DNA of 64,000 bases from positions 20,213-84,212 of the forward strand of contig NZ_JABBPF010000015.1 in NCBI RefSeq assembly GCF_012927415.1. The letters are read 5' to 3'. The DNA is from Polaromonas sp. (GTDB lineage: Bacteria; Pseudomonadota; Gammaproteobacteria; Burkholderiales; Burkholderiaceae_C). Position numbers and translations under genes: made by a program. The notes below the pieces were generated by a model. The model was not told the DNA's origin, did not search any database, and saw only the letters and a list, made by a program, of their open reading frames with translations. Below are positions 3,443 through 22,579 of this stretch, one piece after another (positions within the stretch are counted from its first letter, which is position 1; each line of letters opens with the position of its first letter).

Positions 3443-4741
3443 ATGTTCGCGCTGGTGGACGGAAATAACTTTTATGTAAGCTGCGAGCGTGTCTTTCGCC
3501 CCAGCCTGGCGGGCCAACCGGTCGTGGTCCTCTCAAACAATGACGGCTGCGCCATCGCCAGGTCCAACGAAGCCAAGTCGCTGGGGATCGCCATGGGCGC
3601 GCCTTGGTTTGAGATCGAGCACCTGGCCCAGTCCGCCGGGCTGGTGGCCTTGTCGGCCAATTTTGCCCTGTACGGTGACATGAGCGACCGCATGATGAGC
3701 GTGGCTGCCGGAATGGGACCGGGGCAGGAAATCTACTCCATCGACGAGTCCTTCATTGACCTTGCGGGCGTGCGCGGCAGTCTGCAGGAGCGCGGCCACA
3801 AGGTGCGCGAACGCATCCTGCAGTGGGTCGGGATTCCTTGCGGCATCGGCATCGGCGCCACCAAGACCCTGGCCAAAATGGCCAACCACATTGCCAAGAC
3901 CGCCGAGCGTAAGCCCGGCAGTTATCCGGCATCCCTGGCACAGGTCTGCAACCTGGCGGAGCTGGCACCGGCCGCGCTGGACGAAGTGTTGGCCGCTACA
4001 GCCGTGGGCGAAGTGTGGGGTGTGGGCCAGCGAATTGCTACGCAGTTGAACGAGGCGGGCGTACAGACCGTGCTGGACCTAACCCGGCTGGACCCGGCGA
4101 CGGTTCGCCGGCGCTGGTCGGTGGTGCTGGAGCGCACCGTGCGCGAGTTGCAGGGCATGTCGTGCATTCCACTGGAACTGGCGCCTGCCAATAAGCAGGA
4201 GATTGCCTGTACCCGGTCTTTTGGCTACCCGGTGACAAGCCTGAATGACCTGACGGAAGCGATCACGGAGTTTGCCTGCCGGGGGGCGCACAAGCTGAGA
4301 AGGCAGGGGAGTCTGGCCAACATGGTGCTGGTCTTTATCCGAACCAGTCCCTTCCGGCATTCGCCCCAGTACAGCTGCTCGATGAGCATTCCGCTGCGCC
4401 GGCCCAGTGCGCACAGCGCCGTCATCGTTTCTGCTGCACTTGCGGGGTTGCGCGCAATTTACCGGCCGGGTTACCAGTTTGCCAAGGCCGGCGTGATGCT
4501 GCTGGAGCTGCAGGCGAACTTGGTGTTGCAGGACGAACTTGATTTGGAGCCAGATGAGGCACCCGAACAGGCCGGGCTCATGACCGCGCTGGATGCTCTA
4601 AATCAGCGCTATGGACGAGGCACGGTAAAGCTGGCCAGCGCTGGGCTGGGAGGTGACCGGCGTCTTTGGTCAATGAAGCAGGAACGACTTACGCCGGGGT
4701 ACACGACCTGCTGGGCGGATATGCCAGTGGTGCGGGCGTAG
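3443..4741 (+). CDS. umuC: Y-family DNA polymerase V catalytic subunit UmuC
   Basis: N-terminus [20 protein letters not shown]…[10 protein letters not shown] is typical of UmuC. Gene follows umuD. Confidence 0.9.
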
Positions 4742-5169: not shown

Positions 5170-5787
5170 ATGAATTTGAGTGGTGTGACTTCAAAGGTCG
5201 CAGCGTTTGTCGTGGAAAACAAGCGGATGCTGAGCATTTTTGCGTTTGCCCTCGGTATCTTTGCTTGGACAAACTGGTACTTTTCTGCTCCTAAACAGTT
5301 CGAGCGTTTCGCAGAAAAAGTCACTTACCAAGTATTCACCAGAGATATGCTCCTCTCCGCGTTAAAGGCACTACCCGACAAGACTACGGGCGGTGAAGAC
5401 GAGCCTAGTATCCATTGTGTTGGCGTGACATGCGCCGTGAAAATGGAGGTGACGTTTTATACGGACATCCTGAACGATAAAGACCCGAACAGTCGAATCA
5501 TTTCCTATTCGGTAACAGCAAGGTATTTTCCTCAAAATGTATTTTTCGGGCAGTCTCAATTGCTGCCCCAAAAAATCATGTGGACAGAGCGCGCTTGGGA
5601 ATGGGTCGTTGCAATTAAGTACCCCTCGGACAGCTCCAAAAATCTTTACTTTTACGGAAATTGGGCAGACCTCAACAACGTTCCTGTAGCAGATGGCAAT
5701 TTCTTCTACAACCAACTGTCGGCTATAGGTTCCAACATGTATAGAGGCTCCACCAGAGAGCTTGATAGCCTCAAGCAGAGCCTTTAA
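5170..5787 (+). CDS. hypothetical membrane-anchored protein (orphan, low-GC region)
   Basis: 205-aa ORF with one N-terminal TM helix (MLSIFAFALGIFAWTNWYF). GAGAGGAAAG RBS before the ATG. Confidence 0.5.
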   Translation: MNLSGVTSKVAAFVVENKRMLSIFAFALGIFAWTNWYFSAPKQFERFAEKVTYQVFTRDMLLSALKALPDKTTGGEDEPSIHCVGVTCAVKMEVTFYTDILNDKDPNSRIISYSVTARYFPQNVFFGQSQLLPQKIMWTERAWEWVVAIKYPSDSSKNLYFYGNWADLNNVPVADGNFFYNQLSAIGSNMYRGSTRELDSLKQSL

Positions 5788-6266
5788 TGACATCTAGCAC
5801 GAGCCGTCCCGGTTTTTGAGGGGAGGGTCTAACTTTTGGGAATATGGGCCTCCCGGAACCGCCCGGTGTAGGCGTCTAAACCGCAAGGGGAATTTCCGTC
5901 AATCAAGCAAGATTGAATAGCCGCTTCGCCGTGTCAGAACGGAAGGAAATTGGACTGCCAATTGGCGGGTATTCGCGACCGTCGGCTTCCGCTGCATTGC
6001 CGAAGTACCTCCCGCTCCGTTACAGACCGTCAATCTGAACGACTGCTTTGGAGAAAATTGACCGTCGGCCCCAGACTGGAAGCGGTCCTTCGTACATCGT
6101 CAGGCTCGGTCTGATTTAAGACATTGCTGACAAACCGACTCCTCAATTCATCGCCTCAAAGCCGACATTCAAGTGCTCTCGAAATCGAATCTCTGATGAC
6201 CGAATTACCTTAGCCAGAACCGTTTTCGTCGCGCTTAATGCAAATGCCGCGAAGGAACCACTTCGT

Positions 6267-6395
6267 AAGCAACTGGCCAAGTCATATTGAGTTCGTATGC
6301 GGTTCGCTTCGAATTAGACGTCAACCGTCCAACTTTCGGGGGTCAGTTCATGGCTGATGCCTCATACGAACTCAATATGACTTTGCCAGTTGCTT
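6267..6395. repeat. long inverted repeat: 33-nt arms (1 mismatch) with a 63-nt spacer
   Basis: aagcaactggccaagtcatattgagttcgtatg (6267-6299) against catacgaactcaatatgactttgccagttgctt (6363-6395). It lies 15 nt downstream of the stop of the 811-aa gene. Confidence 0.85.
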
Positions 6396-6409
6396 ATAGT
6401 CGAACGCCA

Positions 6410-8845
6410 CTATTCCTCGTCGTAATCAAACTTACGCAAAGTGATGGACTCATCGGCCCTCCGCTGCTCACTATCGCGCATGGACTCAAGCTGAGAGATG
6501 TACTTAGCAGCAAAGCTTCGGACGCGCTCGTTGGGATCTTGAAGCCAGTCGAGCACTTCACGGCGCTTCTCGTCATACGCCTCCGTCATCCCGTATTCAC
6601 CTGAGACGACGCCGGTATTCTGAAGAGCGATCTCGACTTCGGCGACGACTGGGCTGCTCCTGGGCAAACGCTTGATGAGTTCCTTTGCGACGGGTTGGAT
6701 GAAGGCCTCCCCGTTGTAGGCGCGCAGTACACCAGCCGCGAAGTCGAGCTCAATATCTCTACCTTCGCGAACTAGACGCACAAGTTCTGCTTGGAAGCCT
6801 TCAGAGAACTGTGGAAAGATCGCCTGTAGCAGTTTCGCGCCTCTGAACTCGAAGAGAGACGCGTCCTCGGCGTAGCAGTCCAACACTTTCTCGATCACCA
6901 TTTTTGGGTCGCTGGAGAGGCTGTCTTGCAACGTGTGGAACTGGTAGGGTAGTTCCTCGTACTCTCCGCCTGCCTTTTCGGCAAAGGCCGCAACGTGCTG
7001 CGCTGGCTCATACAGCCGATCGCAGAGGAACTCGACGACCACTCGAGGTTCGCGCTCCGCGATAGCGGCAAGCACATCCTCAGCTTGGTAGTCGATCTGC
7101 GGCAAGAGGCTTAGGTTTCTCAGTACCACGCGGCGCTCCTCGGGCGAGAACTCGGCAACCATTTCCGTCGCCTCTTTTCGGAACCAAATTTCTCTGACCC
7201 AGCCCGCATCGCCAAGCTCGGTAAGACGAGGCAAAGCTCGCAGGAACAACGCCTTCAGCTCGCCGCGTTCCTCTTCCTTTGCCGACCTGCCGATGGCCAC
7301 AGATGCGACTTGGCGCATGACAAAAGCGTCGCGAAGCGCGGTTGCCTTTTCTAACAGCCTTCCCAAGATGCCAGCATCGACATCTTTAGTCGACAAGAAA
7401 ACCTTTGCGCAGGCGTAGAGAAACGACGTCTCGTCTGCACGGGCCTCGGCGATCCACTTCAGTATGAGCGGAAGGAGCTCCTCCCGCTTCTCGCCGTCCC
7501 AGAGTCCGCGAAGTATCGGTATAAGGAATCTTGAGACCTGTTCGGACTCCTCGACGAGAAGATCCAACGCGAACTCTGGGTAGGTGGTCGCCACCTCCGC
7601 AAGGAATTCATAGAAGACAGGGAAGGTCGCTAGGTCATTGGACTCAGTCTGAGCAAATCTCAGAATCCTGCGACGCCATACATCGAACCCTTCGGCTGAA
7701 ACGCGAGCGGCAATGACACGGGCTTCCTTGCGCCTGGATTCTTGAGAACCCAGCGTGTAGGAGTCATCCCGCCTGTCCTTTGACCAATCTCCGAAGATTC
7801 CCTCAAAACCGACCAGCGTCTTGTAGATGGCGTACTCTCCACTGGAGTCGATGACCGCCTTCGTCTCAAGCGCCGCTGCTCTTACCCCTGCGGAGGCGCT
7901 GTGGAAATGAATCCAATAGCTGTCATGCTCAAGCTTCTGGACGACTTGCAGGTCTTCTTCCGCTTTGGCAATGTCACCAAAGAACCCGAGAACCTCCCTA
8001 GCATTTGCGGAGATCATGTCCGAAAACGCCTTGTCGACGACGCCTCTGCCATCCCCTCGCGCAGCCGCATTCATCGCTCTGATGACAGACAACTTATGCG
8101 ACTTGGTCTCAACGAGTTTGTAGAGCCTTTTGACGAGAGCGATGCTTCGCTTGCGGACCTCGACGACGCCTTGATCAGCCGGGACTACAGCGCGGGACAG
8201 AGTCACCGCCGTCGACGACCAGTTTGCCGACTCCATGGAGGGTGAAAGTAGGCCCTCAATTAGAGTAAGAACGCCACGCAGGTGGTTCCTCAGCTCCTCA
8301 TCAGTTTGCTTTTCAAGGGTGTCGATGACCAGAAGCTGAGGCATCGAGCCGATCCCTCTGCCACCGGGAGTGCCATCACCGAAGTACACGGAGATGTTGT
8401 ACTTGGCCAGGCCGCTCAGATCTGACGATGCCGTCTTGCGCACGGACTCTTCTTCATGTGTCGAAGCCCAAAGCAGGCTCTCGACAACGGCCGACGTCTC
8501 CAAATAACGCAGCGCATTGAGCAGGTCGATGCCTTTGGAAATCAAGCTGTAAGCGTTGCGGTACCGGGAAATAGCCGTTAGCTGCGCTCCATATTCATCC
8601 GAATGCATCAGAGGCCGAGTCTCAACAGTACGAATGAAGCTATCTGCGGCAGACACGACGTCCTTGCTTCGTCGGGACCCTACCGTGAGCAGCACATCCA
8701 AGCTGAACTCAAGGGCTTCGTACTCAGTCCTTTCAGCAAGGGTTGTAAATGCCTGCTCGCACGCACGCGCGATCGCTTCATCCGCTGCAGGGGTGTTTGA
8801 TTGAGCCAAGCGCCCAAGGACTTTGATACGCGTCGCGGAGTCCAC
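6410..8845 (-). CDS. large all-helical HEAT/ARM-like repeat protein, function unknown
   Basis: 811-aa ORF with a GTG start 4 nt after the stop of the PIN-like gene. HEAT-like segment DPNERVRSFAAKYI. No catalytic motif recognised. Confidence 0.6.
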   Translation of the reverse strand: MDSATRIKVLGRLAQSNTPAADEAIARACEQAFTTLAERTEYEALEFSLDVLLTVGSRRSKDVVSAADSFIRTVETRPLMHSDEYGAQLTAISRYRNAYSLISKGIDLLNALRYLETSAVVESLLWASTHEEESVRKTASSDLSGLAKYNISVYFGDGTPGGRGIGSMPQLLVIDTLEKQTDEELRNHLRGVLTLIEGLLSPSMESANWSSTAVTLSRAVVPADQGVVEVRKRSIALVKRLYKLVETKSHKLSVIRAMNAAARGDGRGVVDKAFSDMISANAREVLGFFGDIAKAEEDLQVVQKLEHDSYWIHFHSASAGVRAAALETKAVIDSSGEYAIYKTLVGFEGIFGDWSKDRRDDSYTLGSQESRRKEARVIAARVSAEGFDVWRRRILRFAQTESNDLATFPVFYEFLAEVATTYPEFALDLLVEESEQVSRFLIPILRGLWDGEKREELLPLILKWIAEARADETSFLYACAKVFLSTKDVDAGILGRLLEKATALRDAFVMRQVASVAIGRSAKEEERGELKALFLRALPRLTELGDAGWVREIWFRKEATEMVAEFSPEERRVVLRNLSLLPQIDYQAEDVLAAIAEREPRVVVEFLCDRLYEPAQHVAAFAEKAGGEYEELPYQFHTLQDSLSSDPKMVIEKVLDCYAEDASLFEFRGAKLLQAIFPQFSEGFQAELVRLVREGRDIELDFAAGVLRAYNGEAFIQPVAKELIKRLPRSSPVVAEVEIALQNTGVVSGEYGMTEAYDEKRREVLDWLQDPNERVRSFAAKYISQLESMRDSEQRRADESITLRKFDYDEE

Positions 8846-8849
8846 TGCG

Positions 8850-9914
8850 TCAGTCCCCGAAACCGTTGAGCGCGATCATGGCGGGCACTGCTTGTTGAAT
8901 CGCCTTGTTCAACAGATCGCCCGCTACAGCGAGATAGTTGTGGCCCGTATCCCGTATCAGGCCGGCCAACGCTAAACGCTCAAGGGCATTTCTAGCCGCA
9001 TCAGCGGCCACACCAGATTCCACAAGCATATTGATGACCGCCTGTTTGCCTGTCCGTTCCAAAAATCCAACGAATCCGAGCGCCTTGATGTCGATGAGAC
9101 CAAGATGTTTTGTACGGGCCGCCAGCAGGGCTTCCATTTCGCCGGGTTCGACAATTACTTGTTGAGGTGTAACCACGGCAGGGTCCAAGGGCAGCACTGG
9201 CACGATCCGCTCAGTCTTCATGTACGCCTGAACCAGAGGGTGTTCTCCCATAGGCATGTCATCGGGGCCCATGGCAGCGAGGTCAGAAAATCGAGTCTTC
9301 AGCGCCTCGACCAGAGGATTCAGTCCCATTTCTGCGGTGGTGCTGAAAGCCGTGAGCACCAATCCCCTGGATTGAGCCTCCTTCTTAAGACCAGTTGCAA
9401 GAGCGCCTTTTTCGAAAAATCCGACCTCGTCACGAGACACGAATAGCACCTCTGAGCCGCGTGGGAGTGTCAGCATGCTTTCCCAAATGAGGCAATCCTT
9501 ATATCCATGGTCCGATTTTGAAGTCGGGCGCCTATTCTCGATCGTGCGATCGGATGCAGCAACTTTTAGCTCAGGTGTCGTTGGAATGATATGGATGATG
9601 TCTTCGAGTTGCTCCAAGATCTCAAGAGCCTGGGCTTCCCCGAACTGAGATTTGGGAAGCAGCTCAAACAAGTCATAGCCACAAAGCGTCTTTAGTCTAT
9701 GCAGTTCTTTCACAGCCTTCGGGAGTACCTCGTCTCCGGAAAGCGTAAATTGCTTGATGTACTCCATGCGCAGGACTTCTGGCATCAGAAGTTTGGCTTT
9801 CTTGGCGCGCAGCATATCAATGAGTAGTGGCCCACCTTTCTTGCGAAAAAGGTGAGCATCGCGCGCCCCCACGTTCGTGTCACACAGGACGTAAAGTTGT
9901 CCGTTATCCGCCAT
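8850..9914 (-). CDS. PIN-like (DUF4935-type) nuclease-domain protein with a C-terminal winged-helix-like region
   Basis: Acidic-residue pattern VLCDTNV … MPEVLRMEY … KDCLIWES … FVSRDE. The C-terminus (GFLERTGKQAV…LERLALAGLIRDTG) looks wHTH-like. Confidence 0.6.
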   Translation of the reverse strand: MADNGQLYVLCDTNVGARDAHLFRKKGGPLLIDMLRAKKAKLLMPEVLRMEYIKQFTLSGDEVLPKAVKELHRLKTLCGYDLFELLPKSQFGEAQALEILEQLEDIIHIIPTTPELKVAASDRTIENRRPTSKSDHGYKDCLIWESMLTLPRGSEVLFVSRDEVGFFEKGALATGLKKEAQSRGLVLTAFSTTAEMGLNPLVEALKTRFSDLAAMGPDDMPMGEHPLVQAYMKTERIVPVLPLDPAVVTPQQVIVEPGEMEALLAARTKHLGLIDIKALGFVGFLERTGKQAVINMLVESGVAADAARNALERLALAGLIRDTGHNYLAVAGDLLNKAIQQAVPAMIALNGFGD

Positions 9915-9916
9915 AT

Positions 9917-10090
9917 CTATCCATTTGAAAGTCTAGATCGAATTGTAGGAGCGAACGATATATAACCAAACGCATCATCAGTAGCGTCAATCAGCGGTAA
10001 GTCCAACTGTCGACTAAAAGCGATCTTCGGCCCTTCGGAATTCAACGCATATAAGCGGTCGATCAAACGCCTGGAGTCGGGAGTGATCAT
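9917..10090 (-). CDS. possible 57-aa ORF immediately upstream of the PIN-like gene
   Basis: Own translation: MITPDSRRLIDRLYALNSEGPKIAFSRQLDLPLIDATDDAFGYISFAPTIRSRLSNG. The stop lies 2 nt before the PIN ATG. No clear RBS. Confidence 0.2.
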   Translation of the reverse strand: MITPDSRRLIDRLYALNSEGPKIAFSRQLDLPLIDATDDAFGYISFAPTIRSRLSNG

Positions 10091-10172
10091 GAGAAACTGG
10101 CCAAGTGATCGACCATGGCGCTAACAACGCGATTCGTCCGACTGTGGTGTTCTGCGGTGCTTCATGCTTCAA

Positions 10173-13100
10173 CTACACTGGGGTATACGGGCAGATTGTG
10201 GAGAAGTCGCAACGCGTGCAATGGTTGCCAACGGCTGGACTGTTGTTTCCGGTGGCGAAACGCAATGCGGCCTTGTATGACTTGGTCATCTCGATTGCCC
10301 TAGTACCGGGAATTGCGTCCGTCTTGTCCGAAAGCACATGGTGAAGTGAAATGGACGCAGGCCCGGGAAGGCTCAACCCCTGCAGCAACGGCTTCATGAT
10401 GGTCGTGTACTCACTGATGCCACGGCGAGAGAATCTTAGAATTGCATACTCGGTACCGCCGTCGATTCCCGGTATCCGAAAGCCCCAGGGCATCTGCAGC
10501 GTCAATCCGCCGATGACAGCCGACGCCTGCGCGAATGTGCCATCTCGCTTCTGCAGCGCGCGAACCTGAGACTTACCTCGTCTCAGCGCGAAAATCGCGT
10601 CCCTCCACAGGGAGGGATCTTCGAGCCGGGATGGCAACTTTCGGGCTATCCACTCATCTTCCAACGCGCTTTCTGGGGCGCTTTTGACCCTCGAGGAGAA
10701 CGCCTTGAGCGCATCCATCACCGCCCATCTGGCCCGCAGGGATGTGTCGATGTCAGATTCGCTCTGCAACTCCAAAACGCGGTTGTACCAGTACCGCAGC
10801 GAACAAGTCGCGTAGATGTAGAAATCCTCGAACGTAATTGCCGTCGGCTGCGCAAACGCCCCGCTCGAGACGCTCTTCGCCTTGGTTATTGTGGGGCCCG
10901 TGTACGTCTTGAGCTGGAACTTCTTGGGGTAGTGGTTTAGCTGAGGCGCAGTCGAGTTCCTGAACTTGGTGTCCTGGTAGAGGTAGAGGTGGCGCTTTGC
11001 TCTGGATACCGCGACGTAAAGCAAGTTGTTCCGTTCTACTGACGCCTCAAACTTATAGTCGTCCAGGCTGCTGCCAAGCACTTCCGGTGGGACGATGTCG
11101 AGAATTCCATCAGGGCTCCAACTCGGTGCTTGGCTTCCGTAGCTATCAGAGCTCACGAAGCCTACATGCACGGCCTCAAACTCTAGCCCCTTACTGCCAT
11201 GAACCGTCATAACTTGGACACCGTCGAGCACACCGGCTTCAGGGGGGAGTTCGCGCTGACCTTGGGAATCGCCAATTTTCTGGCGCAAGCGCTGGCGCAA
11301 GAGATACCGGGACAGTCGCGCCTCCTTCATTTCCCCATCACCGTTTCTCACGCTGTAGGCGAACTGCCAAAGAGCGATGCGGGTTACCCAAGCTCGGACG
11401 CTTGTGTCCGCGAAGGACGGGAGGCCGAGGTGCTGCTCCAGTAAGAGGTCGCAAATGAAGGTCCATGGATTAGAGCCATGCTGGAACTTTCCTATGAGCT
11501 TGCGGAGATTGGCCGTCACCTCAAGGCCGCGAGAGCTCATGCCAGACGGCGGGGAGTGAATCCATCGGCCTCGCTGGAAGGTCAAGTCGTTCTCGGCAGC
11601 GTTTAGGAGAACCTCCACGTCAGCCAGCGGCATGTTGAGGGCTGGAATGCCCGATAGGCCAATTAAGGCCTTTGGGCGACGCTCAACGAGAAGCTGAATG
11701 AGGCAGAGCAAGTGCTTCACCTCAGCCCGGGCGGTCAGGTCACCGATGTAGATAATGGGAATGCCCGCATGCTCAAGTAGTTCTGCGGCCCGCTCTACAT
11801 CGCTAGTCTTGCGGCAGAGGATGGCCTGGTGACCAAACGGCACCCCACTGGCCTGTAGTTCGCGAATGCGTTCGGAGACCGCTCCGAGAATTGCATCGCT
11901 CTCGCTGCTGCTGACAACGACGGGCATTACGCCCGATGCTCCATTGGTTGCGAAGACCTCATCCAGCTTCAAAGAACTTTGCAGAACATGCTCGCGGCCA
12001 ATCTGTTGAGTGAGGTCGACGACCTCTTGCGAGCTTCTTCTGTTGTACGTTAAAGGGTAGCGCTGGATTGCGGTCCCACCAGCGTGGGCCTTGAATTCGG
12101 TTTCAAACTTCAGTAGGCTTTTTAGCGAAGCACCCCGCCAGTGGTGGATGGCCTGCCGAACATCTCCAACTACCCAGATGTGCTTCTTGTAAGCCAACTG
12201 GCGTAGCAACTCGACCATGGCCCGCGTGACGTCCTGGTACTCGTCCACCAGAACGTACTCGAATCGATCGACTAGTTCTGCGAATGGCGTTCGGTCTTCT
12301 CGGAGGGCATATGCAGGCTTCGAGATGAGGTCTACGAAGTCAACAGTCTGGCGTTCCTTGAGCAGCGTCTCGTACAGTTCGAAAAGTGTGGCCACATCAA
12401 GGCGTTTCTGCTGAAGCTCCTCATCCTCGACCTTGTTCTCTTTAACGAAATACCTGTAGGCCGCTGGGGTAACTAACTCCTCTTTGAGTCGCGTGATTCC
12501 GCTGACAACAGGGCCAAGCCAGTCATATGGGTCTTCCACGCGCAAGAAGTGGGTGAGTTCCACTTGAGGTAAAGCCTTGACCATGGTGGTCATTGAGTTA
12601 ATAAAGTCTGAAACGTGAAGGTTTGAGTCAAAACTGAAATGCTGGTGATACTTTCTCAGGAACTCCAGCCCAAACGAATGGAAGGTGCCTGCCCAAATCG
12701 CGGAGGCATCCGTAATCCCCGCGTTACGCAGTCGCTCAACTAATTCGAACGCCGCCTTGTTGGTAAACGTGAGAACCAGAATCTGGCTCGGATGGACCTG
12801 CTTCTCTTCCACCAGGTACTTCACTCGGTGGATGAGAGTCGTCGTCTTACCAGTGCCTGGCCCGGCCACCACGTTAGCGGCTCGCTCTGGGGCCCTCGCT
12901 GCGGCGAGCTGGTCGGGACTCGGTTCGCTTAGTGGACTCGCCGTAACCGTCGCTTCAGGAAGCAGCAGCCCGTCGAGCATCTGCTGCCGGACGAACTCCA
13001 ATGGGATGCCCAGTTCCGTAGCAGTCTCTGCAGGCCCCTTACCGGCCATAGCAAATTGACGGGCGACATCTCGCGGTAGTAACAACTCGCGCGCGAACAA

Positions 13101-13505
13101 ATTTGCTTGGAGCTCCTGCCTCTCCCGTGCCCCGTAGGCTTCAACTTTGAGAACAGCTGGACTGCCAGCGCTGCCTAGCAGTGTTTTCAGGTAGGCAACG
13201 GTAGTTGCCGGCTTTGCTGCGTCAAGAAAGTAGTGCCCGAGTTCGTGTGCGACAAGGCCACAAAACTCAGCACTCCACGCATCAACTTCCGAGCTCACGT
13301 AAATGAACATTTGCTCCCGCTGGAGTACGGCAGTTCCACCGCCTAAGTCGGCGTAAGACGGCGGTACTTGCTCAATCGCAATGTTCAGGACGGATTCGAC
13401 TTTGTGTAAGAGGTCCTTTGCCGTAACGGCGGCGTGCGCAAGCGAGGGCTCCAGGTTGGCTCTGGTTGCATGGGCTTCATTTCGAGCGCGCTGGAACGGG
13501 TTCAT
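10173..13505 (-). CDS. fusion protein: ImmA/IrrE (M78) metallopeptidase + UvrD/PcrA-type SF1 helicase + C-terminal Cas4/AddB-like Cys4 nuclease-fold domain
   Basis: Peptidase motifs: AHELGHYF and ANLFARELLLP. Helicase motifs: AGPGTGKTT, VLVDEYQD, GDVRQAIHHWRGA, TVHGSKGLEFEAVHV, YVAVSRAKRHLYL. C-terminal cysteines: YATCSLRYWY … CTRCDFSTIC (C…CX2CX5C). Confidence 0.8.
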   Translation of the reverse strand: MNPFQRARNEAHATRANLEPSLAHAAVTAKDLLHKVESVLNIAIEQVPPSYADLGGGTAVLQREQMFIYVSSEVDAWSAEFCGLVAHELGHYFLDAAKPATTVAYLKTLLGSAGSPAVLKVEAYGARERQELQANLFARELLLPRDVARQFAMAGKGPAETATELGIPLEFVRQQMLDGLLLPEATVTASPLSEPSPDQLAAARAPERAANVVAGPGTGKTTTLIHRVKYLVEEKQVHPSQILVLTFTNKAAFELVERLRNAGITDASAIWAGTFHSFGLEFLRKYHQHFSFDSNLHVSDFINSMTTMVKALPQVELTHFLRVEDPYDWLGPVVSGITRLKEELVTPAAYRYFVKENKVEDEELQQKRLDVATLFELYETLLKERQTVDFVDLISKPAYALREDRTPFAELVDRFEYVLVDEYQDVTRAMVELLRQLAYKKHIWVVGDVRQAIHHWRGASLKSLLKFETEFKAHAGGTAIQRYPLTYNRRSSQEVVDLTQQIGREHVLQSSLKLDEVFATNGASGVMPVVVSSSESDAILGAVSERIRELQASGVPFGHQAILCRKTSDVERAAELLEHAGIPIIYIGDLTARAEVKHLLCLIQLLVERRPKALIGLSGIPALNMPLADVEVLLNAAENDLTFQRGRWIHSPPSGMSSRGLEVTANLRKLIGKFQHGSNPWTFICDLLLEQHLGLPSFADTSVRAWVTRIALWQFAYSVRNGDGEMKEARLSRYLLRQRLRQKIGDSQGQRELPPEAGVLDGVQVMTVHGSKGLEFEAVHVGFVSSDSYGSQAPSWSPDGILDIVPPEVLGSSLDDYKFEASVERNNLLYVAVSRAKRHLYLYQDTKFRNSTAPQLNHYPKKFQLKTYTGPTITKAKSVSSGAFAQPTAITFEDFYIYATCSLRYWYNRVLELQSESDIDTSLRARWAVMDALKAFSSRVKSAPESALEDEWIARKLPSRLEDPSLWRDAIFALRRGKSQVRALQKRDGTFAQASAVIGGLTLQMPWGFRIPGIDGGTEYAILRFSRRGISEYTTIMKPLLQGLSLPGPASISLHHVLSDKTDAIPGTRAIEMTKSYKAALRFATGNNSPAVGNHCTRCDFSTICPYTPV

Positions 13506-13511
13506 TGCGTC

Positions 13512-14516
13512 TCAGACTCCGAAGTCAAGAAGAGCCTTGGCGTCATCAGCAGGCAGATTTAGCGACTTCACTGCGGCGGTCCAAGTTGTGGGTGCTGTCG
13601 AGAGCATTGGCTTTCCAGCTTTCGCCTTAAACGCAGGCACCAATCTGCGGTCAAAACTGCCTCGGAATAATGTCGACAGCAGAGACTCAGGAGCCTCAAA
13701 GGCCCCCGCAAGTCTGGAGAGCAACTTCCTCGGAGCTCGTACATTTCCGACAAGGATGCTCGAGACAAGAGGGGTGGCAACAGGCTGAAGTTCAAGCTTC
13801 GAAACCAGATTGCGTATCGCGGCGCCCTTGCAACTGGAGACCCTTGGCTCGAGAGCGGCCAGCAGCTTCTGCATAGCAAGTCCGTGGGCTGCGCATAGCA
13901 CGGCTAGCTCGGAGACTGACTTCTCATACTCCTTGGCAGTTGACCGGAAGCGAACAGCATGGCCTGGGTCCAAACGAATCATTACCTGCTCAGTATTCGA
14001 ATCGTGCCACTCATGTAGTTCTTGACGAAGCGTTTCGAATAGCGAAGTCGAGCTCGCATAGAGCGACCTTGCAACGAAGTCTTCAAATCCAAAAACAACG
14101 AATCGTCGGCACACATCTGCAAAGCTCGTCGCTTCTGAGGACGCTATCGAATTGAGATGCTTCTTGAGGCTCAAAGGCAATGTAGCCCCGAGAGTCTGCT
14201 GCCTTGTCTTGGACAAAGAGCGCTCGGACGAGGGAGGATTGGTTTCGCTGGCGTTCATTCGAACAGTTGCTCTTAGCTCGGCGGTGGACGTGAGAAAGGA
14301 GGCAAGGTCAACGAGCGCCTGCCGAATCGCTTCGTTGGGAGAAGTGGCCGACACCTGACGCTTCCCAACGCCAGCAATTTCGTAGGAGACAGCTACACCT
14401 CCTTCAGCCTGTGGCTCCAGTTGGGCCGTTCGAAGAATGTTAGAGAATGTGTCTGGGAGCCGAGACAAGAGCACTTGCCCTTGATCAAGGGCAACCGGGT
14501 CGAGTGTGGTTTGCAT
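13512..14516 (-). CDS. hypothetical protein, translationally coupled to the peptidase-helicase fusion
   Basis: ORF runs 13512-14579. The start was preferred at ATG 14516 (GGAAGG RBS), which leaves an 89-bp divergent intergenic region. Its stop is 6 nt before the next ATG. Confidence 0.5.
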   Translation of the reverse strand: MQTTLDPVALDQGQVLLSRLPDTFSNILRTAQLEPQAEGGVAVSYEIAGVGKRQVSATSPNEAIRQALVDLASFLTSTAELRATVRMNASETNPPSSERSLSKTRQQTLGATLPLSLKKHLNSIASSEATSFADVCRRFVVFGFEDFVARSLYASSTSLFETLRQELHEWHDSNTEQVMIRLDPGHAVRFRSTAKEYEKSVSELAVLCAAHGLAMQKLLAALEPRVSSCKGAAIRNLVSKLELQPVATPLVSSILVGNVRAPRKLLSRLAGAFEAPESLLSTLFRGSFDRRLVPAFKAKAGKPMLSTAPTTWTAAVKSLNLPADDAKALLDFGV

Positions 14517-14605
14517 TTGCGCCTTCCATGACTGCGGGGCGTACGCGAGCCCCTTAACACTAGTATAGACAAATATCAAGAATGTATCAATCCCGCGGAG
14601 ATTTT

Positions 14606-15640
14606 ATGACTGCACCGAAGCTGGCAGCGGCCATCAGGGCCGCTGCCACAGCTTGGGAAAAGGCTACCACCTTTGACCAACGAACATACGCCCTGGCTTG
14701 CCCCGGTGAGCTCGCTGACATCCTGGGCAAGGCTGTCGAGGAAGCTCTGGAAAGCGCGGGCGAGGACCCGATGGCGATTCGTCAGGAAGTCATCGCGGCG
14801 CCCTTCGTTCTGCTTGCCGGAGTGTTCGAACCCGGTGAATTGCCTGAAACGCCAGAATGGTTCACTCCGGTTCCGGACGCTGGTGGCACTCAAATGGGAC
14901 GTGCTGCGGCGACTGCTGCGCATGGATTCCTTGGCATGGAGACCGTGTCATATGGGTCAGAGAATAGCGGTGAATTGTTCGTCAGCCTGACGGCGATTCC
15001 GGGCAAGGGTAAGTATGCGCGCAAGTCGCAGGGAGGGCTGCGCGGGCACACGGATGCGGTGAGCTTTCCGTTCAACGGGGAAACAGACGCTTCAAACTCG
15101 CGAATCGCACCTTCGCCGGACCTGGTGACTTTGGTCGGGCTGCGAAATCCGAGGGCCGTGCCGACGACGGTGATGGTGCTCGACGAGGCCTTAGACAAGC
15201 TGTCGCCTGAGGACGTCCACGAATTGAAGCAGGGGCAGTTTTCCATCGGGTCGCAAACCACTTTCCTAGAAGGTATGAGCGACATCCTGGGGGATGTGCA
15301 CACGGCCATTGATGAGCCGGTCCTCAAGGACGCGGCCTTCGGCACAATTGTTCGTTTCAGCCACTCCAATGTTTTCTCGACTGAGTCTGGCGGGGCGGCA
15401 GAGACGGCTGCTGAGAATTTTGCGAAGGCCTGCGGCGAAGTCGCCAAGCCCGTGGCTATCGAGCCCGGTGACGTCCTGCTCGTCAGCAATCGGCGTTGCC
15501 TGCACGGTCGCGGCGAGGTGGGTGACGATATCGGCGGGCATTCTAGATGGCTGCTGCGGACCTACGCGTTGGATACGTCGGAGCTGGATGACAGCCGGCG
15601 ACACCTCGGAGATCAGCCTCCTCACGTGCTTTTCCCTTAA
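14606..15640 (+). CDS. Fe(II)/2-oxoglutarate-dependent oxygenase, clavaminate-synthase/TauD-like
   Basis: HxD (LRGHTDAVS), distal His and Arg (NRRCLHGRGE … SRWLLRTY). The start was preferred at ATG 14606 (GGAG RBS); the ORF track starts at 14582. Confidence 0.6.
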   Translation: MTAPKLAAAIRAAATAWEKATTFDQRTYALACPGELADILGKAVEEALESAGEDPMAIRQEVIAAPFVLLAGVFEPGELPETPEWFTPVPDAGGTQMGRAAATAAHGFLGMETVSYGSENSGELFVSLTAIPGKGKYARKSQGGLRGHTDAVSFPFNGETDASNSRIAPSPDLVTLVGLRNPRAVPTTVMVLDEALDKLSPEDVHELKQGQFSIGSQTTFLEGMSDILGDVHTAIDEPVLKDAAFGTIVRFSHSNVFSTESGGAAETAAENFAKACGEVAKPVAIEPGDVLLVSNRRCLHGRGEVGDDIGGHSRWLLRTYALDTSELDDSRRHLGDQPPHVLFP

Positions 15641-16705: not shown

Positions 16706-16927
16706 TTAGAAAAGGTCGCGTGAATCGGCAGCTGATCCAGAGCTTAGCCAAGCCTGAAGCTCTGATATTCGAATGAACGTCAAATTCCCTATGTGGATTG
16801 ACCGAAAGGGAATCTGGCCCGTGGACAGGGCTGCTCGAAAGCTTTCGGCAGTGAGGCCAGCCATGCGGGCGGCAGCAGCCAGGCGAAGTAGCCCGCTGGC
16901 TGGAATTTGAGAGTGATCGATTTGCAT
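16706..16927 (-). CDS. AlpA/excisionase-family HTH DNA-binding protein
   Basis: 73 aa. LLRLAAAARMAGLTAESFRAAL…IPF…FIRISELQAWL resembles the HTH_17/AlpA pattern. Confidence 0.55.
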   Translation of the reverse strand: MQIDHSQIPASGLLRLAAAARMAGLTAESFRAALSTGQIPFRSIHIGNLTFIRISELQAWLSSGSAADSRDLF

Positions 16928-17791: not shown

Positions 17792-20128
17792 TCAGAAAAG
17801 TGAAGGCGGCAAGAAGCCGCGCTTTTTCACACCGTGGACCCGCTTGTTCACATAGGTATAACCTTGTCGTATAAGCGACTTTTTGACCCTTGCCAGTTGT
17901 TGTTTCGCTATTTGCGAATTGGGCAAGCACAATGCCTCCCTCAGCACCTCTCCCGCAGTCAAAAACTCGCGCTCAAACGGCGTGCGGTTTCCTGCAAAGT
18001 CGGGTTCGCGAAGCCATTTATGGATGACGTTATCCCACTCATCATGCTCGGCAAAGGTCGCGTGCTCGTCTTCTGCCAGGCGTTCTGCTTGTTGGTGAAG
18101 CACGCCATGTGCTTTAAATTGTTCCCGCGCTTCTGCCCATAATTGATCTCTGTCGCGCGCGATAGCGTCGGGGTCACACATCCCACATTGAAACGGTAGC
18201 CATCTACGGTTGCCGGTTTCATCGGCCAGAAAATCATCTTTATTGGTTGTGCCAAAGAACATGTTCCTGCGCCTGTATCGCACGGTCCATTCCTTATATT
18301 TGGGTGTCCATTCCTCATGTGATCGGGTGATGAAGGATTTGATGTATTCGGCATCTCGCGAACTGAGCCCCTTTAATTCGTCGAGCTCGATAATCAATTT
18401 CCCGCGCATGATGCGGGCCAGATCGTCGTCTCGGCTGCTAAGGTCAATCGCGGTGTAAAAATCAGGTGCTGGCACCAGCGCAGCCACCGCCGACGACTTC
18501 CGCATACCCTGCGCTCCAACGGCAATAGGCACCATGTCGCACTTGATCCCGGGCTGCAGCACACGCCCCGCCGCCGCGGTCCAGAAGTACAGGCCCACAG
18601 CGCACGCGTACGGGGTGTCGGCTACGCAGAAATAGGTCTGTAGGAACCGTTCAATCCTCGGTTTTCCGTCCCACTGCGCCCTGTCAAGCCAATGCTGAGC
18701 AGAGTCAAACGAATTCGCTTCGGCGACATACGCGACAACATCGCGGATTAATTCCTTGCTGATGCTCTGAAATCTGCCACGCTCCAGGCGAAGGCACAAC
18801 TCTGTGTAGTCTGTGTCCTTGAGTGATCTCCAACCCTCGGTGCCGTTTTCAGCGAGCATCGTTTCATCTCTGAACTCGTCATGCCGTAATTGATAACCGC
18901 ATATATCTGGACGGCTGAGTGCTTGAAGGATGTTGTCTTTTGACGCCTTGATATCGCCCGTAGTCGTATTGCGTTGGAATGCAGGCCAGGCTTCTGTCTC
19001 GTTAGGTGCAGGCAGGTTGTCGGGCAAACCGTCTGCTGTCGGTGCGTTCCATTCAGGATTCAATTTGTACGCCATGTCGTACAGCGTGCCGCGCGTTATG
19101 CGTTTTCCTTCCTTGTTGTCTCGGCATCTATCCCACGTCGCCCGAGTGGGGCGCCTACCGGCGTTTACGGGGTTCTGGCCTTCCCATTCTTTGAAAAGGT
19201 CGAAAGCTTCTTCATCGCCTCCACTGGCCTCATGTGTGGCAAACAGCAAATTGCGCCATGTATCGTAATTTGTTGCGGCGCTTGTGGTGCTTAGTTCGGT
19301 TGCCAGTGGCGCCACGGCCGCCAACGCTCGTGCGATTTTTTCGATAGGGTCAGGTGGTGCGAGTTCGGCCATCTCAAGTTCATGGACTGGTTGTGCCAAT
19401 TGCGGGACGCCATCCGACACCTGCCAGGCCATGCGCGGTGCTGACTCAGGAATCGCGGCTGCCAGGCATAGGTCGAATTCGTCTACCAGCGGCTCGCTTT
19501 TGTTCCAAAATGGCAAGATTGCCATGTTCCCATTGCTCCCAGGGCCAGAAGCATTTAAGCGTTCTTGCTTGGGGAAAATCTCAACTTGGCCAGCAGCTAT
19601 GCCGCCTGTGCCTTCGCTGAACCCTTCAATAGCAAGTACCGTGACCAATGTGCGCCGAACGCTGTACGCGTCCTGCAGCGTGTCCCATATCATCCAAAGA
19701 TGAATACCTGCGCCACCGGACGATCGGAATGCGGTAGGGCGCAAACACGTATTCTTCAGGCCAGCGCAGAGCCGTTCGGCGGTTAGCAGCATGTCATCGA
19801 ATGTGGTTTCGCCGTTGTGGCTGTCCAGGTCCAGAAGTGCAATCTTCGTGGTGGACTGGCCGGGCGACATTAGCCCAATACCGCAACCCCTGCGACCGTC
19901 GAGATGCGCGTCGATATGCTTTTCCGTAAGCGGGTAATCGGCCCATTTCGGGATAGCGCCATGATCTTTACACGCACATCGATCCTGTCGGGCGCGCTCG
20001 GTAAGGGCCCGCAGTAATTCACGTTTATGCTTTTTCGAGAAAGTCTCCCGACTATTCAATAAATTCCCTTTATCGTCTGTCGAGTTCGTGTTTTCGTCGG
20101 CAGACGCTGCTTCAGTGAGTGGAGTCAC
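17792..20128 (-). CDS. replication protein: AEP prim-pol + PriCT-like + VirE-type P-loop domain
   Basis: ALLDLDSH and SSGGAGIHLW (AEP motifs). NYDTWRNLLFATHEASGG (PriCT-like). GAQGMRKSS Walker A and IIELDEL Walker B in a VirE-like C-terminus. GTG start with AGGAAA RBS. Confidence 0.8.
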   Translation of the reverse strand: MTPLTEAASADENTNSTDDKGNLLNSRETFSKKHKRELLRALTERARQDRCACKDHGAIPKWADYPLTEKHIDAHLDGRRGCGIGLMSPGQSTTKIALLDLDSHNGETTFDDMLLTAERLCAGLKNTCLRPTAFRSSGGAGIHLWMIWDTLQDAYSVRRTLVTVLAIEGFSEGTGGIAAGQVEIFPKQERLNASGPGSNGNMAILPFWNKSEPLVDEFDLCLAAAIPESAPRMAWQVSDGVPQLAQPVHELEMAELAPPDPIEKIARALAAVAPLATELSTTSAATNYDTWRNLLFATHEASGGDEEAFDLFKEWEGQNPVNAGRRPTRATWDRCRDNKEGKRITRGTLYDMAYKLNPEWNAPTADGLPDNLPAPNETEAWPAFQRNTTTGDIKASKDNILQALSRPDICGYQLRHDEFRDETMLAENGTEGWRSLKDTDYTELCLRLERGRFQSISKELIRDVVAYVAEANSFDSAQHWLDRAQWDGKPRIERFLQTYFCVADTPYACAVGLYFWTAAAGRVLQPGIKCDMVPIAVGAQGMRKSSAVAALVPAPDFYTAIDLSSRDDDLARIMRGKLIIELDELKGLSSRDAEYIKSFITRSHEEWTPKYKEWTVRYRRRNMFFGTTNKDDFLADETGNRRWLPFQCGMCDPDAIARDRDQLWAEAREQFKAHGVLHQQAERLAEDEHATFAEHDEWDNVIHKWLREPDFAGNRTPFEREFLTAGEVLREALCLPNSQIAKQQLARVKKSLIRQGYTYVNKRVHGVKKRGFLPPSLF

Positions 20129-20565: not shown

Positions 20566-20979
20566 CTACTTTTTAGATAGGCGGTCTATCCGCTTACGCG
20601 CTGTATTGTCATCAACTGCATCATGCAGTGACCCGTCGATACGTGCCGTATGGATTGCACCGGCTTTTGTGTAACCCTCAAAACCTTGAAGTACTGTGGC
20701 AACTTCTGCAAATGCACGGTGATGCTCGTACTTTCCACTTAGACCCGCTGCCCTTAAAACCGCATCAGCCCGGCGTGCAGTGGGGGCAGTTTTGCCTCCC
20801 GCTGCCAGTAGGCACCGTGCAAGTTCTCGCATGAACAGCATGTCATCGGTGTCCGTCCCGCCGTCCGCCACACGCTGCAGTACTGTCTCTACTACATTGC
20901 GGTTCGGTGTGTGGTCGGCTTGACGGTCTTGGTGCCAAAGCGCGTCCAAGGCTTTTACAACTTCTTCATCATCGATCAT
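20566..20979 (-). CDS. hypothetical protein
   Basis: 137-aa ORF overlapping the integrase stop by 4 nt. Confidence 0.45.
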   Translation of the reverse strand: MIDDEEVVKALDALWHQDRQADHTPNRNVVETVLQRVADGGTDTDDMLFMRELARCLLAAGGKTAPTARRADAVLRAAGLSGKYEHHRAFAEVATVLQGFEGYTKAGAIHTARIDGSLHDAVDDNTARKRIDRLSKK

Positions 20980-22307
20980 GCTGCCACCACGCGAATCGCA
21001 CCGGCTAGTGCGTTGGCATCGAACACAATCCCAGCCTGTTCCAGAATCCAGGCTTCAATCTTTTCGTGGTGAACCCGAAGCAGTTCCAGCGGACGCACGG
21101 TGTAATGCTTCTCGGCAGTGGCGCTGGGTTTGTGCCCTTGAATTTGTGCCACCACGCCAACGGGAACTTCAAGCCACTCGGTCAGGCTCTTGAAGGAACG
21201 GCGAAGGCCGTGCAAAGTCAGCCCTTCAAGGCCAGCAGCCTTGCACGCGCGGGTGTGTGGGTTGTTTGGCTCAGTGAGGCAGCCGGTTGCGCTCGTGTGG
21301 CTTGGAAACACCCATTCATTGCGGCGGGGCAGGGCAGACAGTAGGAGCAGCATGTATGGCGTTGCAGGTATCTCGCGGGTTCCGTCTACCTTGTCCCGGA
21401 TGCTGATTCCCTTCCATTGGGTGTTCACATCCTTCCAGCGCAGCGCCAAAACTTCCCCGGGCCTCGCGCCAGTGAGCAACATCATTTGCAGGCAGGCGGC
21501 AATTACCGGGTTCTGTATCTGTTGCACGACGGCAAACCATGCGGTCAATTGCCCACGCTGGAGAACGTCTGATTTAGTCCCGGCCTTGCCCAGCGCTTCG
21601 CGGGCTTTCTTGGTTTTGGCTGGGTTTTTTGCAGGCAGCAGTCCAGCGTACGCAGGCTGTTCACCGCACCACGTCAAGAATACGGTCAGCAGTCGCCATG
21701 CAAGCCGGGCAGATGATGGACGGGCTTTGCCTTCAATAGCAGCCCAGCGTTCGATTGTGGCTTGATCAAGGTCTTTTAGTCGTAGCGGCATCAGGCCAGC
21801 CAGCGGCCCCGGCTTTGTCAGATGCTTGCCGCCTCCACGACGGCCAGATGGCAGTCCCCCAGCTTTGGCCTTGTCCATATGGTCGCGGAAGTGCAGGTCA
21901 CCCCAAAACTGTCGGCGCTCTTCAATGTATGTGGCCCAAACCTCGCCTACGGTCAGGGCTGATACCTTGTCGGCTTCCACTTTGGCGGCGGCTGCGGCCT
22001 GCTTAGTTGTCGTCGCTACTACAGCATCGCGCTTTAGGTCGCGGGGGTCTTTACCCTCATCTATCAGGCGTTGAAGCTCTCGGGTCTTTTCTTGAGCTTG
22101 AGGAATGCTCCAAGCAGAGGTGGAACCTATGGTGATACGGATGCTTTTTTGCTTGAACTCTCCTTGAAACACATAGGCAGGTTTCCCGGCCGGCGTTGCT
22201 CTAAGCCCCAGCCCCGGCGCTGTCACGTCCCACAGAAAAATCTGAGGCTTATCAGTCAGACATTTGAACGCGGCAACCCGGCCAGCGGTGAATGCAATCT
22301 TTGCCAT
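20976..22307 (-). CDS. int: tyrosine site-specific integrase (P4-type, DUF4102 N-terminal arm-binding domain)
   Basis: N-terminus LWDVTAPGLGLRATPAGKPAYVFQ… is DUF4102-like. C-terminal catalytic region TGARPGE…HGLRRSF…GHKPSATAEKHY. Confidence 0.9.
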   Translation of the reverse strand: MAKIAFTAGRVAAFKCLTDKPQIFLWDVTAPGLGLRATPAGKPAYVFQGEFKQKSIRITIGSTSAWSIPQAQEKTRELQRLIDEGKDPRDLKRDAVVATTTKQAAAAAKVEADKVSALTVGEVWATYIEERRQFWGDLHFRDHMDKAKAGGLPSGRRGGGKHLTKPGPLAGLMPLRLKDLDQATIERWAAIEGKARPSSARLAWRLLTVFLTWCGEQPAYAGLLPAKNPAKTKKAREALGKAGTKSDVLQRGQLTAWFAVVQQIQNPVIAACLQMMLLTGARPGEVLALRWKDVNTQWKGISIRDKVDGTREIPATPYMLLLLSALPRRNEWVFPSHTSATGCLTEPNNPHTRACKAAGLEGLTLHGLRRSFKSLTEWLEVPVGVVAQIQGHKPSATAEKHYTVRPLELLRVHHEKIEAWILEQAGIVFDANALAGAIRVVAA

Positions 22308-22322
22308 GTCTAACCCTTTGCG

Positions 22323-22359
22323 CCCTTACATCGCCAGGATGTAAGGGCGGATGTAAGAC
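22323..22359. repeat. GATGTAAG repeats next to int (one inverted + two direct), putative arm-type sites, right arm
   Basis: cccttacatc (inverted copy) followed by gatgtaagggcggatgtaagac, which is identical to 201-222. Confidence 0.55.
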
Positions 22360-22486
22360 AATTTGCTGAATATTGACCTATTTCAATCAACATTCAAACC
22401 GGGAAATGTTCGCTATAGTTGGTCTAACACGTTGATTTAAAACAATTATACCTACATCAATCAACAGTGAAAAATATTAAAAAGTT

Positions 22487-22538
22487 AGGATTGTGATTCC
22501 TGTTGTCGTGGGTTCGAGCCCCATCAGCCACCCCAAGT
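22487..22538 (+). repeat. attR: displaced native 3' part of tRNA-His (52-bp direct repeat)
   Basis: Identical to 96-147. Confidence 0.9.
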
Positions 22539-22550
22539 TTAGTGAAAAAA

Positions 22551-22579
22551 GCCTGCTATCAGTTCAATAGCGGGCTTTT
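22551..22579 (+). terminator. native tRNA-His terminator hairpin
   Basis: gcctgctat-cagttca-atagcgggc followed by TTTT. Confidence 0.65.

Follow-up and report, generated by a model that had tools for sequence, protein, structure and literature searches.

A stretch of 64,000 nucleotides (nt) from Polaromonas sp. (contig NZ_JABBPF010000015.1, positions 20,213 to 84,212; referred to as “the window” in the following) contains a mobile two-gene cassette at positions 6398 to 9951. Both genes are located on the minus strand. The first one, the effector gene at 8850..9914, starts with an ATG and encodes a PIN-domain protein of 354 amino acids (aa), and the second one, the solenoid gene at 6410..8845, starts with a GTG and encodes a protein of 811 aa. 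Both products are identical to annotated proteins of a Polaromonas sp. contig. On balance, the pair is probably an immune or conflict module without a nucleoside triphosphatase (NTPase); sensing or regulation would fall to the solenoid and the toxic activity to the PIN domain. An initial annotation of the window had interpreted the two genes as a nuclease effector plus a large repeat sensor or scaffold. Such a self-contained pair is borne out by the co-occurrence of the two genes, their movement as a cassette, and the exchange of effectors around the solenoid. The positions given in that annotation for both genes, a small upstream open reading frame (ORF) of 57 aa, the 4-nt junction, and the 258-nt gap to the next gene upstream were all correct.

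Conservation and boundaries of the cassette

A pattern-based scan of one genome per species, which covered 185,579 species genomes, identified a solenoid homologue at 13 loci. The PIN gene was located directly 5′ of the solenoid gene, in the same order and with the same 4-nt spacing, in 11 of the 11 loci with intact upstream sequence. The genera included Pseudorhodoferax, Variovorax, Undibacterium, Piscinibacter, Pseudomonas, Parasulfuritortus, Pelomonas, Mitsuaria, Roseateles, and Comamonas. An all-against-all comparison of the ORFs revealed nothing beyond the pair that these loci had in common, and the flanks differed everywhere. Scanning of metagenomes added 80 further loci with 26 to 73% identity. 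PIN homologues with 33 to 39% identity still preceded a gene for a solenoid of about 805 aa at one Bradyrhizobium locus and on two metagenome contigs, with a spacing of −11 to +4 nt; in the Bradyrhizobium pair, the PIN protein was 38% and the solenoid 43% identical to the respective window protein. When all standalone solenoids with readable upstream DNA were considered (about 71 loci, located in genomes as well as in metagenomes and on viral contigs), an effector gene was always present upstream, with its end at −7 to +12 nt relative to the solenoid start. The two genes were together at every locus that could be checked.

The identities of the PIN protein and of the solenoid to the window pair co-varied (r = 0.92, 34 loci). 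A group of loci (L007, L008, L010, L016, and L031 to L033) was an exception, with solenoids of about 60% and PIN proteins of about 39% identity; the values for locus L034 were 57% and 59%. These identities suggest a faster divergence of the PIN gene or its exchange among cassettes.

The borders of the cassette were obtained by alignment of the window DNA to 25 loci with blastn. The alignments started between positions 9914 and 9951 and ended between positions 6398 and 6426. The upstream limit at 9951, which is 37 nt 5′ of the ATG of the PIN gene, was reached by the three closest loci, and most alignments stopped at 9914 to 9930; a short leader (9915..9951, minus strand) therefore precedes the PIN gene in the unit. 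Downstream, the homology ended at the stop codon of the solenoid gene or a few bases past it, at 6398. These limits also hold for the closest relatives, loci L024 and L025, which are 84 to 86% identical. Position 9951 is the upstream edge of the mobile cassette. None of the neighboring products in the window (a 1,110-aa helicase protein, a 355-aa ORF, the 57-aa ORF, a 205-aa ORF, and a TauD-like protein) was found in the 108 related loci with tblastn. Because these neighbors are missing from all 108 loci and because the homology stops at the indicated limits, the unit comprises positions 6398 to 9951, and the 57-aa ORF, the helicase gene, and a hairpin downstream of the solenoid gene are not part of it.

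It had been suggested instead that the whole block 6410-14516 might be one unit, composed of the 355-aa ORF, the helicase gene, the 57-aa ORF, the PIN gene, and the solenoid gene, and closed by the hairpin. All these genes are on the same strand and closely spaced (gaps of 258 nt and 6 nt), strong terminators were not found in between, and there is a strong hairpin downstream of the last gene. The hairpin itself is real, with arms of 37 nt and a fold z-score of −9 compared to shuffled sequence. It occurs only in the window, however, and is not conserved even in relatives with 84 to 86% identity, so that it does not mark the border of a conserved unit. Together with the absence of the helicase, the 355-aa ORF, and the 57-aa ORF from all 108 loci and the stop of DNA homology 37 nt before the PIN gene and at the solenoid stop, this makes an extended unit highly improbable. 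The hairpin was also rejected as a component of the cassette, since the homology ends at 6398, 2 bases beyond its outer arm. The 57-aa ORF (9917-10090, minus strand), the TAG of which is positioned 2 nt ahead of the ATG of the PIN gene, was considered as a small antitoxin and likewise rejected: it is not conserved in the relatives, including those with 84 to 86% identity, and the homology stops within it at 9951.

At the junction of the two cassette genes (8846..8858, minus strand), the TGA of the PIN gene (8850-8852) is followed by the 4-nt spacer CGCA (8846-8849) and by the GTG of the solenoid gene at 8845. A Shine-Dalgarno-like GGGGA motif is located at 8854-8858, within the 3′ end of the PIN gene. 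Such an arrangement points to translational coupling of both genes. A promoter scan of the region 5800-10400 did not find a sigma-70 consensus, and an Rfam search of the region 5700-10400 yielded a chance match to a microRNA as its sole result.

The PIN_12-winged-helix protein

The 354-aa protein belongs to the Pfam family PIN_12 (PF16289, formerly DUF4935), with a score of 52.6 bits compared to a cutoff of 32 (E = 9.8e-14) and with residues 12 to 166 aligned to positions 4 to 172 of the 172 profile positions. In an alignment of 58 homologues with 32 to 86% identity, the residues D12, N14, E51, D140, E145, and D162 were invariant. An AlphaFold model built on this alignment (predicted local distance difference test score [pLDDT] of 83.5) contained a PIN fold, a disordered and poorly conserved linker at residues 218 to 252, and a C-terminal winged helix. 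On the basis of the model and the conservation per domain, the protein was divided into the PIN_12 domain (residues ~1 to 208), a variable disordered linker (~210 to 258), and the winged helix (~259 to 350). In the predicted structure, D12 is positioned after strand 1, E51 in the helix after strand 2, D140 at the start of the helix before strand 4, and D162 after strand 4. The four acidic PIN positions that had been proposed from the letters alone are these invariant residues D12, E51, D140, and D162, and they are located within the PIN fold of the model.

Comparison of the model with the PDB by Foldseek gave VapC toxins as best matches of the N-terminal part, with a probability of 1.0, and MarR-type winged-helix regulators as matches of the C-terminal part. 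The winged-helix-like C terminus of the initial annotation is thus visible both in the model and in its structural matches. The PIN protein had no matches in PADLOC, NCBIfam, or PHROGs, and no solved relatives of either window protein were found when single sequences and profiles were compared with the PDB sequences. In the 2017 classification of PIN domains, the sole systematic treatment of DUF4935, this family is listed with unknown function and with usually monocistronic genes, and RNase activity is typical of the PIN domains in the VapC group (Matelska 2017, PMC5499597).

The solenoid protein

The model of the 811-aa protein (pLDDT of 89.4, predicted template modeling score [pTM] of 0.72) is an uninterrupted all-alpha superhelix of the HEAT/ARM-like type. 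Helices account for 44 of the 46 secondary-structure elements, and a single beta-hairpin is located at residues 203 to 220. No Pfam domain was found above threshold. The lone HEAT match (PF02985) at residues 764 to 786, which spans DPNERVRSFAAKYI, had 20.5 bits and was under the cutoff of 23.5. There were no matches in NCBIfam, PADLOC, or PHROGs, and an NTPase or catalytic domain was not detected with Pfam, NCBIfam, and PADLOC or as a Rossmann-like core in the all-alpha model. This agrees with the earlier description of an all-helical, HEAT-like protein without a catalytic motif.

In an alignment of 66 solenoid sequences, 91 positions were invariant. The most highly conserved motifs of the family were TGVVxGEYG close to the C terminus (residues 744 to 752, window ~6590-6616) and the beta-hairpin region at residues 203 to 223 (window ~8177-8239) with M204, W209, S211, P222, and A223. 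With TGVVxGEYG as the search pattern, 304 metagenome relatives were obtained. Neither of them resembles known catalytic or nucleotide-binding motifs. Both regions are candidate interaction sites.

A Foldseek search of the solenoid model against the PDB resulted in 145 matches at E ≤ 1e-3. The best 50 of these 145 were all HEAT/ARM-type scaffolds, such as SF3B1, CRM1, CAND1, and importins, with template modeling (TM) scores of 0.2 to 0.28. There was no match below E = 1e-3 among the viral predicted structures of BFVD. The top matches to eukaryotic scaffolds (SF3B1, CRM1, importins) would fit a housekeeping pair for RNA processing or regulation, with the PIN protein as processing RNase and the HEAT protein as scaffold, comparable to eukaryotic ribosome or spliceosome factors. 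Matches with TM scores in this range are generic, however, and the solenoid did not match any known housekeeping family. Moreover, the pair has a patchy distribution, with 13 loci in 185,579 species genomes, is located between unrelated flanks and on mobile elements, and occurs with toxic effectors that have been exchanged around the solenoid. A housekeeping function is, hence, hardly to be expected.

Exchange of effectors around the solenoid

The extent of the solenoid family was determined by searching 1.84 billion cluster representatives exhaustively with a profile. Relatives were present in 1,363 clusters (50% identity) at E ≤ 1e-3 and in 667 clusters at E ≤ 1e-30. The window solenoid has 216 close homologues. 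Among the best 149 cluster representatives were 97 standalone proteins of about 800 aa, 26 proteins with an N-terminal RelA_SpoT fusion, and 8 proteins with an N-terminal DUF4365 fusion. The RelA_SpoT heads matched the PADLOC candidate system PDC-S33 (best E = 1.9e-16), and some DUF4365 heads matched a model for an Argonaute-associated nuclease. DUF4365 is a PD-(D/E)XK nuclease domain that is also present in partners of short Argonautes. The RelA_SpoT fusions are widespread, with members in Legionella, Fluoribacter, Bradyrhizobium, Deltaproteobacteria, and Acidobacteria. As single genes, they are carried by a conjugative element and by an integrative island. On a Legionella pneumophila contig (L026, 8001-11036), a fusion protein of 1,011 aa is encoded within the conjugative element and is flanked by relaxase and ArdC/type IV secretion genes. 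A related fusion in Bradyrhizobium (L028) resides on an island that also carries a BilD_N gene and fragments of integrases.

The standalone solenoids are preceded by separate effector genes. The DNA upstream of metagenome solenoids was classified with local hidden Markov models (HMMs) and subsequently with Pfam for 43 proteins that the local PIN model had missed. PIN_12 was assigned in at least 61 loci (34 by the local HMM and 27 by Pfam), PIN or PIN_4 of the PIN clan in 2 loci, and SIR2_2 in 5 or 6 loci. Of the effectors missed by the local PIN-domain HMM, 34 still matched the winged-helix HMM. The genes for SIR2_2 proteins of about 400 aa ahead of a solenoid gene include L063 3800-5005, L065 3806-5005, L080 3593-4795, and L090 499-1698. 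The SIR2 effectors of L080 and L090 matched the C-terminal winged-helix domain of the window PIN protein with E values of 1e-11 and 4e-14, respectively, and those of L063 and L065 had no match to the winged-helix HMM. At locus L079 (602-3934 and 3943-5001), a divergent PIN-like gene and a solenoid gene directly follow the gene for a 1,111-aa protein, which, by eye, resembles the DUF499/BrxC-type ATPases.

SIR2, toxSAS-like RelA/SpoT, PD-(D/E)XK, and PIN domains are known toxic effectors of defense systems, and the exchange of enzymatic heads around a fixed module is typical of immune and conflict systems. By the profile matches, the solenoid is the constant part of the family, the enzymatic head is exchanged, and the winged-helix tail recurs on PIN_12 and SIR2 effectors. 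That the same tail can carry a PIN_12 or a SIR2 head is the strongest argument for the winged helix as the likely contact to the solenoid.

Residence on mobile DNA

In the window, the cassette is part of the cargo of a 22.4-kb island that is inserted in tRNA-His. The ends of the island are formed by an exact direct repeat of 52 nt (96-147 and 22487-22538). This corresponds to a repetition of the 3′ part of the tRNA at 22487 (69-147 versus 22487-22579, with 52 nt exact and 93 nt at 87%). A further direct repeat of 27 nt just within each island end (201-227 and 22338-22364) may represent an arm site of the integrase. The island encodes a tyrosine integrase (20976-22307, minus strand), a VapE/AEP primase (17792-20128), an excisionase-like HTH_17 protein (16706-16927), UmuDC, and a non-specific endonuclease. 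Additional cargo is the gene for the TauD-like protein of 352 aa (14582-15640, plus strand), which is divergent from the 355-aa ORF. This protein is Fe(II)/2-oxoglutarate dioxygenase-like, with weak matches of the TauD, arginine-hydroxylase, or clavaminate-synthase type.

At other loci, the cassette is accompanied by fragments of integrases and transposases, a 1,004-aa protein with a reverse-transcriptase domain (RVT_1), Mrr, ScoMcrA/HNH, and SNIPE. PADLOC identified PDC-M27ABC, MADS, DolB, ZacC, DrmD, and DpdE among these neighbors. Three loci were located on viral contigs of IMG/VR. A umuC gene convergent to the solenoid gene was present in the window (3443-4741, plus strand) and also at locus L023 (4151-5428, minus strand), an unrelated IMG/VR contig (42% identity), which suggests that the cassette is carried by similar UmuDC-bearing elements. 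The genomic context is compatible with a defense function and does not prove it.

Comparison with named systems

No named system or paper that describes a PIN_12-solenoid pair was found in the literature, in agreement with the initial annotation, which could not assign one. The present comparison adds a distant link to Olokun (through OloA) and, by function, an analogy to DSR2. The Olokun system was reportedly described by Millman et al. in 2022. It likewise consists of two genes, for a large adaptin/HEAT-like solenoid without NTPase motif and a nuclease. OloA, the adaptin-like protein, and OloB, a PD-(D/E)XK nuclease, assemble into a 2:2 complex (about 278 kDa), in which OloA contacts a non-catalytic N-terminal helical docking domain of OloB (bioRxiv 10.1101/2025.07.10.664194). 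The OloA model of PADLOC matched 3 of 51 sampled members of the solenoid family (P0325 with 2e-8, P0377 with 5e-9, and P0300 with 1e-3). The window solenoid had no match to this model at E ≤ 0.1, and PADLOC did not find an OloB match for the window pair. The OloA profile has 596 positions compared to 811 residues of the window solenoid, and the window nuclease is a PIN_12 domain with a C-terminal winged helix, whereas OloB is a PD-(D/E)XK nuclease with an N-terminal docking domain. Olokun is nevertheless the closest named system, and a distant homology of the solenoids is plausible from the profile matches.

The main alternative is that the pair forms an Olokun-like complex that is always assembled and that recognizes and cuts the nucleic acid of the invader directly, without killing the host cell. 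Purified OloAB without an added trigger degrades some phage DNAs, nicks plasmid DNA, and spares Escherichia coli genomic DNA (bioRxiv 10.1101/2025.07.10.664194), the OloA model matches some family members, and a winged helix fused to a nuclease could bind nucleic acid. The choice of the target would be made by the solenoid or by the winged helix. In the VapC group, on the other hand, the typical activity of PIN domains is that of an RNase (PMC5499597). In addition, the alternative effectors of the family, which are of the SIR2 NADase type and the RelA/SpoT toxSAS type, hit the metabolism of the host and not the nucleic acid of the invader. Since they act on host metabolism, a toxin released by a sensor is favored over a targeting nuclease, and a directly cutting complex remains the unlikely solution, albeit the strongest of the alternatives.

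By analogy, DSR2 is the best mechanistic analogue. In this NTPase-free immune protein, an alpha-solenoid domain detects a phage protein and governs the toxic enzymatic head (PMC11850899, PMC11087589). Relatives of the window solenoid are paired with a SIR2_2 effector, similar to this arrangement. DSR2 is one polypeptide with an N-terminal SIR2 domain, however, whereas SIR2 is encoded by a separate gene in the solenoid family, in some cases with the winged-helix tail, and the head of the window system is a PIN_12 domain in a gene of its own. A sequence kinship to DSR2 was not detected: a profile built from 23 diverse members of the family returned no relevant chain from the PDB at E ≤ 10, and there was no DSR2 chain among the top 50 Foldseek matches of the solenoid.

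The closest fold of the PIN domain, that of VapC, the four conserved acidic residues, and the tightly coupled bicistron are reminiscent of VapBC. The pair could therefore be an addiction module similar to a toxin-antitoxin system, with the solenoid as an oversized antitoxin, a winged helix for autoregulation, and no dedicated immune role. It would then stabilize the islands, plasmids, and prophages that host it. The residence of the module always on or near mobile DNA, its movement as a cassette, and its DNA-binding-type domain would fit such a function. In canonical VapBC, however, the DNA-binding domain is part of the small antitoxin, which is encoded first, and not of the toxin. The window system has no small upstream antitoxin; its PIN protein has 354 aa instead of about 130 aa and its own winged helix, and the partner is an 811-aa solenoid encoded downstream. 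A protein of this size that is conserved over its full length (91 invariant positions in 66 sequences) exceeds the needs of neutralization. The toxin-solenoid fusions of the family resemble the fused sensor-toxins CapRel and DSR2, and a differential decay of the antitoxin is impossible for them because they are single polypeptides. A pure addiction module is, for these reasons, quite improbable.

The logic of an autoinhibitory sensor as in CapRel is matched by those relatives that fuse a RelA/SpoT toxin head to the solenoid. The sensor of CapRel is a small pseudo-zinc-finger domain compared to a solenoid of about 700 aa, and the window system uses two genes and a PIN effector. PDC-S33 is similar insofar as it was matched by the RelA/SpoT heads of the solenoid relatives. 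Cosus (Brc24), an integron-cassette protein with a domain called “PIN12” by its authors, provides phage defense that is reduced by mutation of predicted PIN residues (bioRxiv 10.1101/2024.07.02.601719). Its likeness is one by the description of these authors, and Cosus is a small single gene without a solenoid partner or winged-helix tail. The pair differs from STAND/NLR-like (Avs) systems by having no central P-loop NTPase of the NACHT or NB-ARC type.

Local neighbors outside the cassette

The helicase gene (10173-13505, minus strand), which ends 258 nt from the PIN gene, encodes a 1,110-aa protein with an M78/IrrE-type peptidase domain, a UvrD-type helicase domain, and a weak match to PD-(D/E)XK at its C terminus. 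The helicase part matched the PADLOC models for GajB and for a helicase associated with defense-associated reverse transcriptases (DRT). The 355-aa ORF (13512-14579, minus strand) is located upstream of this gene and matched no family. From these matches, the 1,110-aa protein and the 355-aa ORF look like a separate defense candidate.

Downstream of the cassette, the inverted repeat starts about 12 bases beyond the stop codon of the solenoid gene and consists of arms at 6266-6302 and 6360-6396 that are 95% complementary. The 131-bp element (6266-6396) is unique within the window, and the closest relatives lack it. An 18-nt copy of the outer end of the hairpin (AGAAACTGGCCAAGTGAT) is located at 10090-10107, just after the helicase gene and upstream of the cassette. 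This copy is barely above chance, since 2 of 300 shuffles scored as high. The inverted repeat and the 18-nt copy may be left over from a small mobile element or from a site of recombination.

Proposed mode of action and meaning of the module

If the pair is an immune or conflict module, its mode of action may be envisaged as follows. One transcript would be produced, from which both proteins would be synthesized by coupled translation. The solenoid and the PIN-winged-helix protein would form a complex, probably via the winged-helix tail. The solenoid would offer a large binding surface and silence the nuclease until a product of a phage or plasmid is recognized; binding of this invader-derived molecule to the solenoid surface would then release or activate the PIN nuclease. 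PIN would be a Mg2+-dependent nuclease that most likely acts on RNA, as VapC-type toxins do, or possibly on DNA. Cleavage of cellular or invader nucleic acid would halt the infection, with the cell arrested in growth or killed. The resemblance to the sensor-effector logic of abortive infection, which had been noted initially, is supported with respect to the two-gene core of effector and solenoid. The domain identities, the strict adjacency and coupling of both genes, the mobility of the cassette, its residence on mobile elements, and the exchange of effectors are observed, whereas the complex, the sensing partner, the trigger, the substrate, the abortive outcome, and the defense function itself are inferred.

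Several observations weigh against this interpretation. Neither window protein was matched by PADLOC, NCBIfam, or PHROGs. The winged helix could bind DNA instead of the solenoid. The link to OloA comprises 3 of 51 members, and the alignment of one of these (P0300) is out of register, as may happen with repeat proteins. Many neighbors of the cassette are ordinary housekeeping genes, such as those for TonB receptors, LysR regulators, AcrB, and ribonucleotide reductase, and the Bradyrhizobium pair is located among core metabolic genes.

Beyond the window, the solenoids may tentatively be viewed as a large, unnamed superfamily of NTPase-free immune receptors with at least 1,363 clusters, in which OloA would be a distant branch, a single kind of alpha-solenoid would sense invaders directly, and at least four unrelated effector types (PIN_12, SIR2 NADase-type, RelA/SpoT toxSAS-type, and DUF4365 of the PD-(D/E)XK type) would be either fused to the solenoid or recruited by a winged helix; this is possible, if less than probable. 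The module is related to Olokun and DSR2 in its logic and perhaps in its ancestry.

Should the pair be a defense system, it would add a widespread, NTPase-free family with exchangeable effectors to bacterial immunity, provide a function for the orphan DUF4935/PIN_12 family, and place OloA into a far larger evolutionary context. As the tail common to effectors of the PIN and SIR2 type, the winged helix is a concrete candidate for a portable adaptor that plugs different toxins into one sensor, and the fused RelA/SpoT and nuclease forms would be the single-gene versions of the same module. For Polaromonas sp., the window represents a clean example of putative defense cargo on a tRNA-His island.

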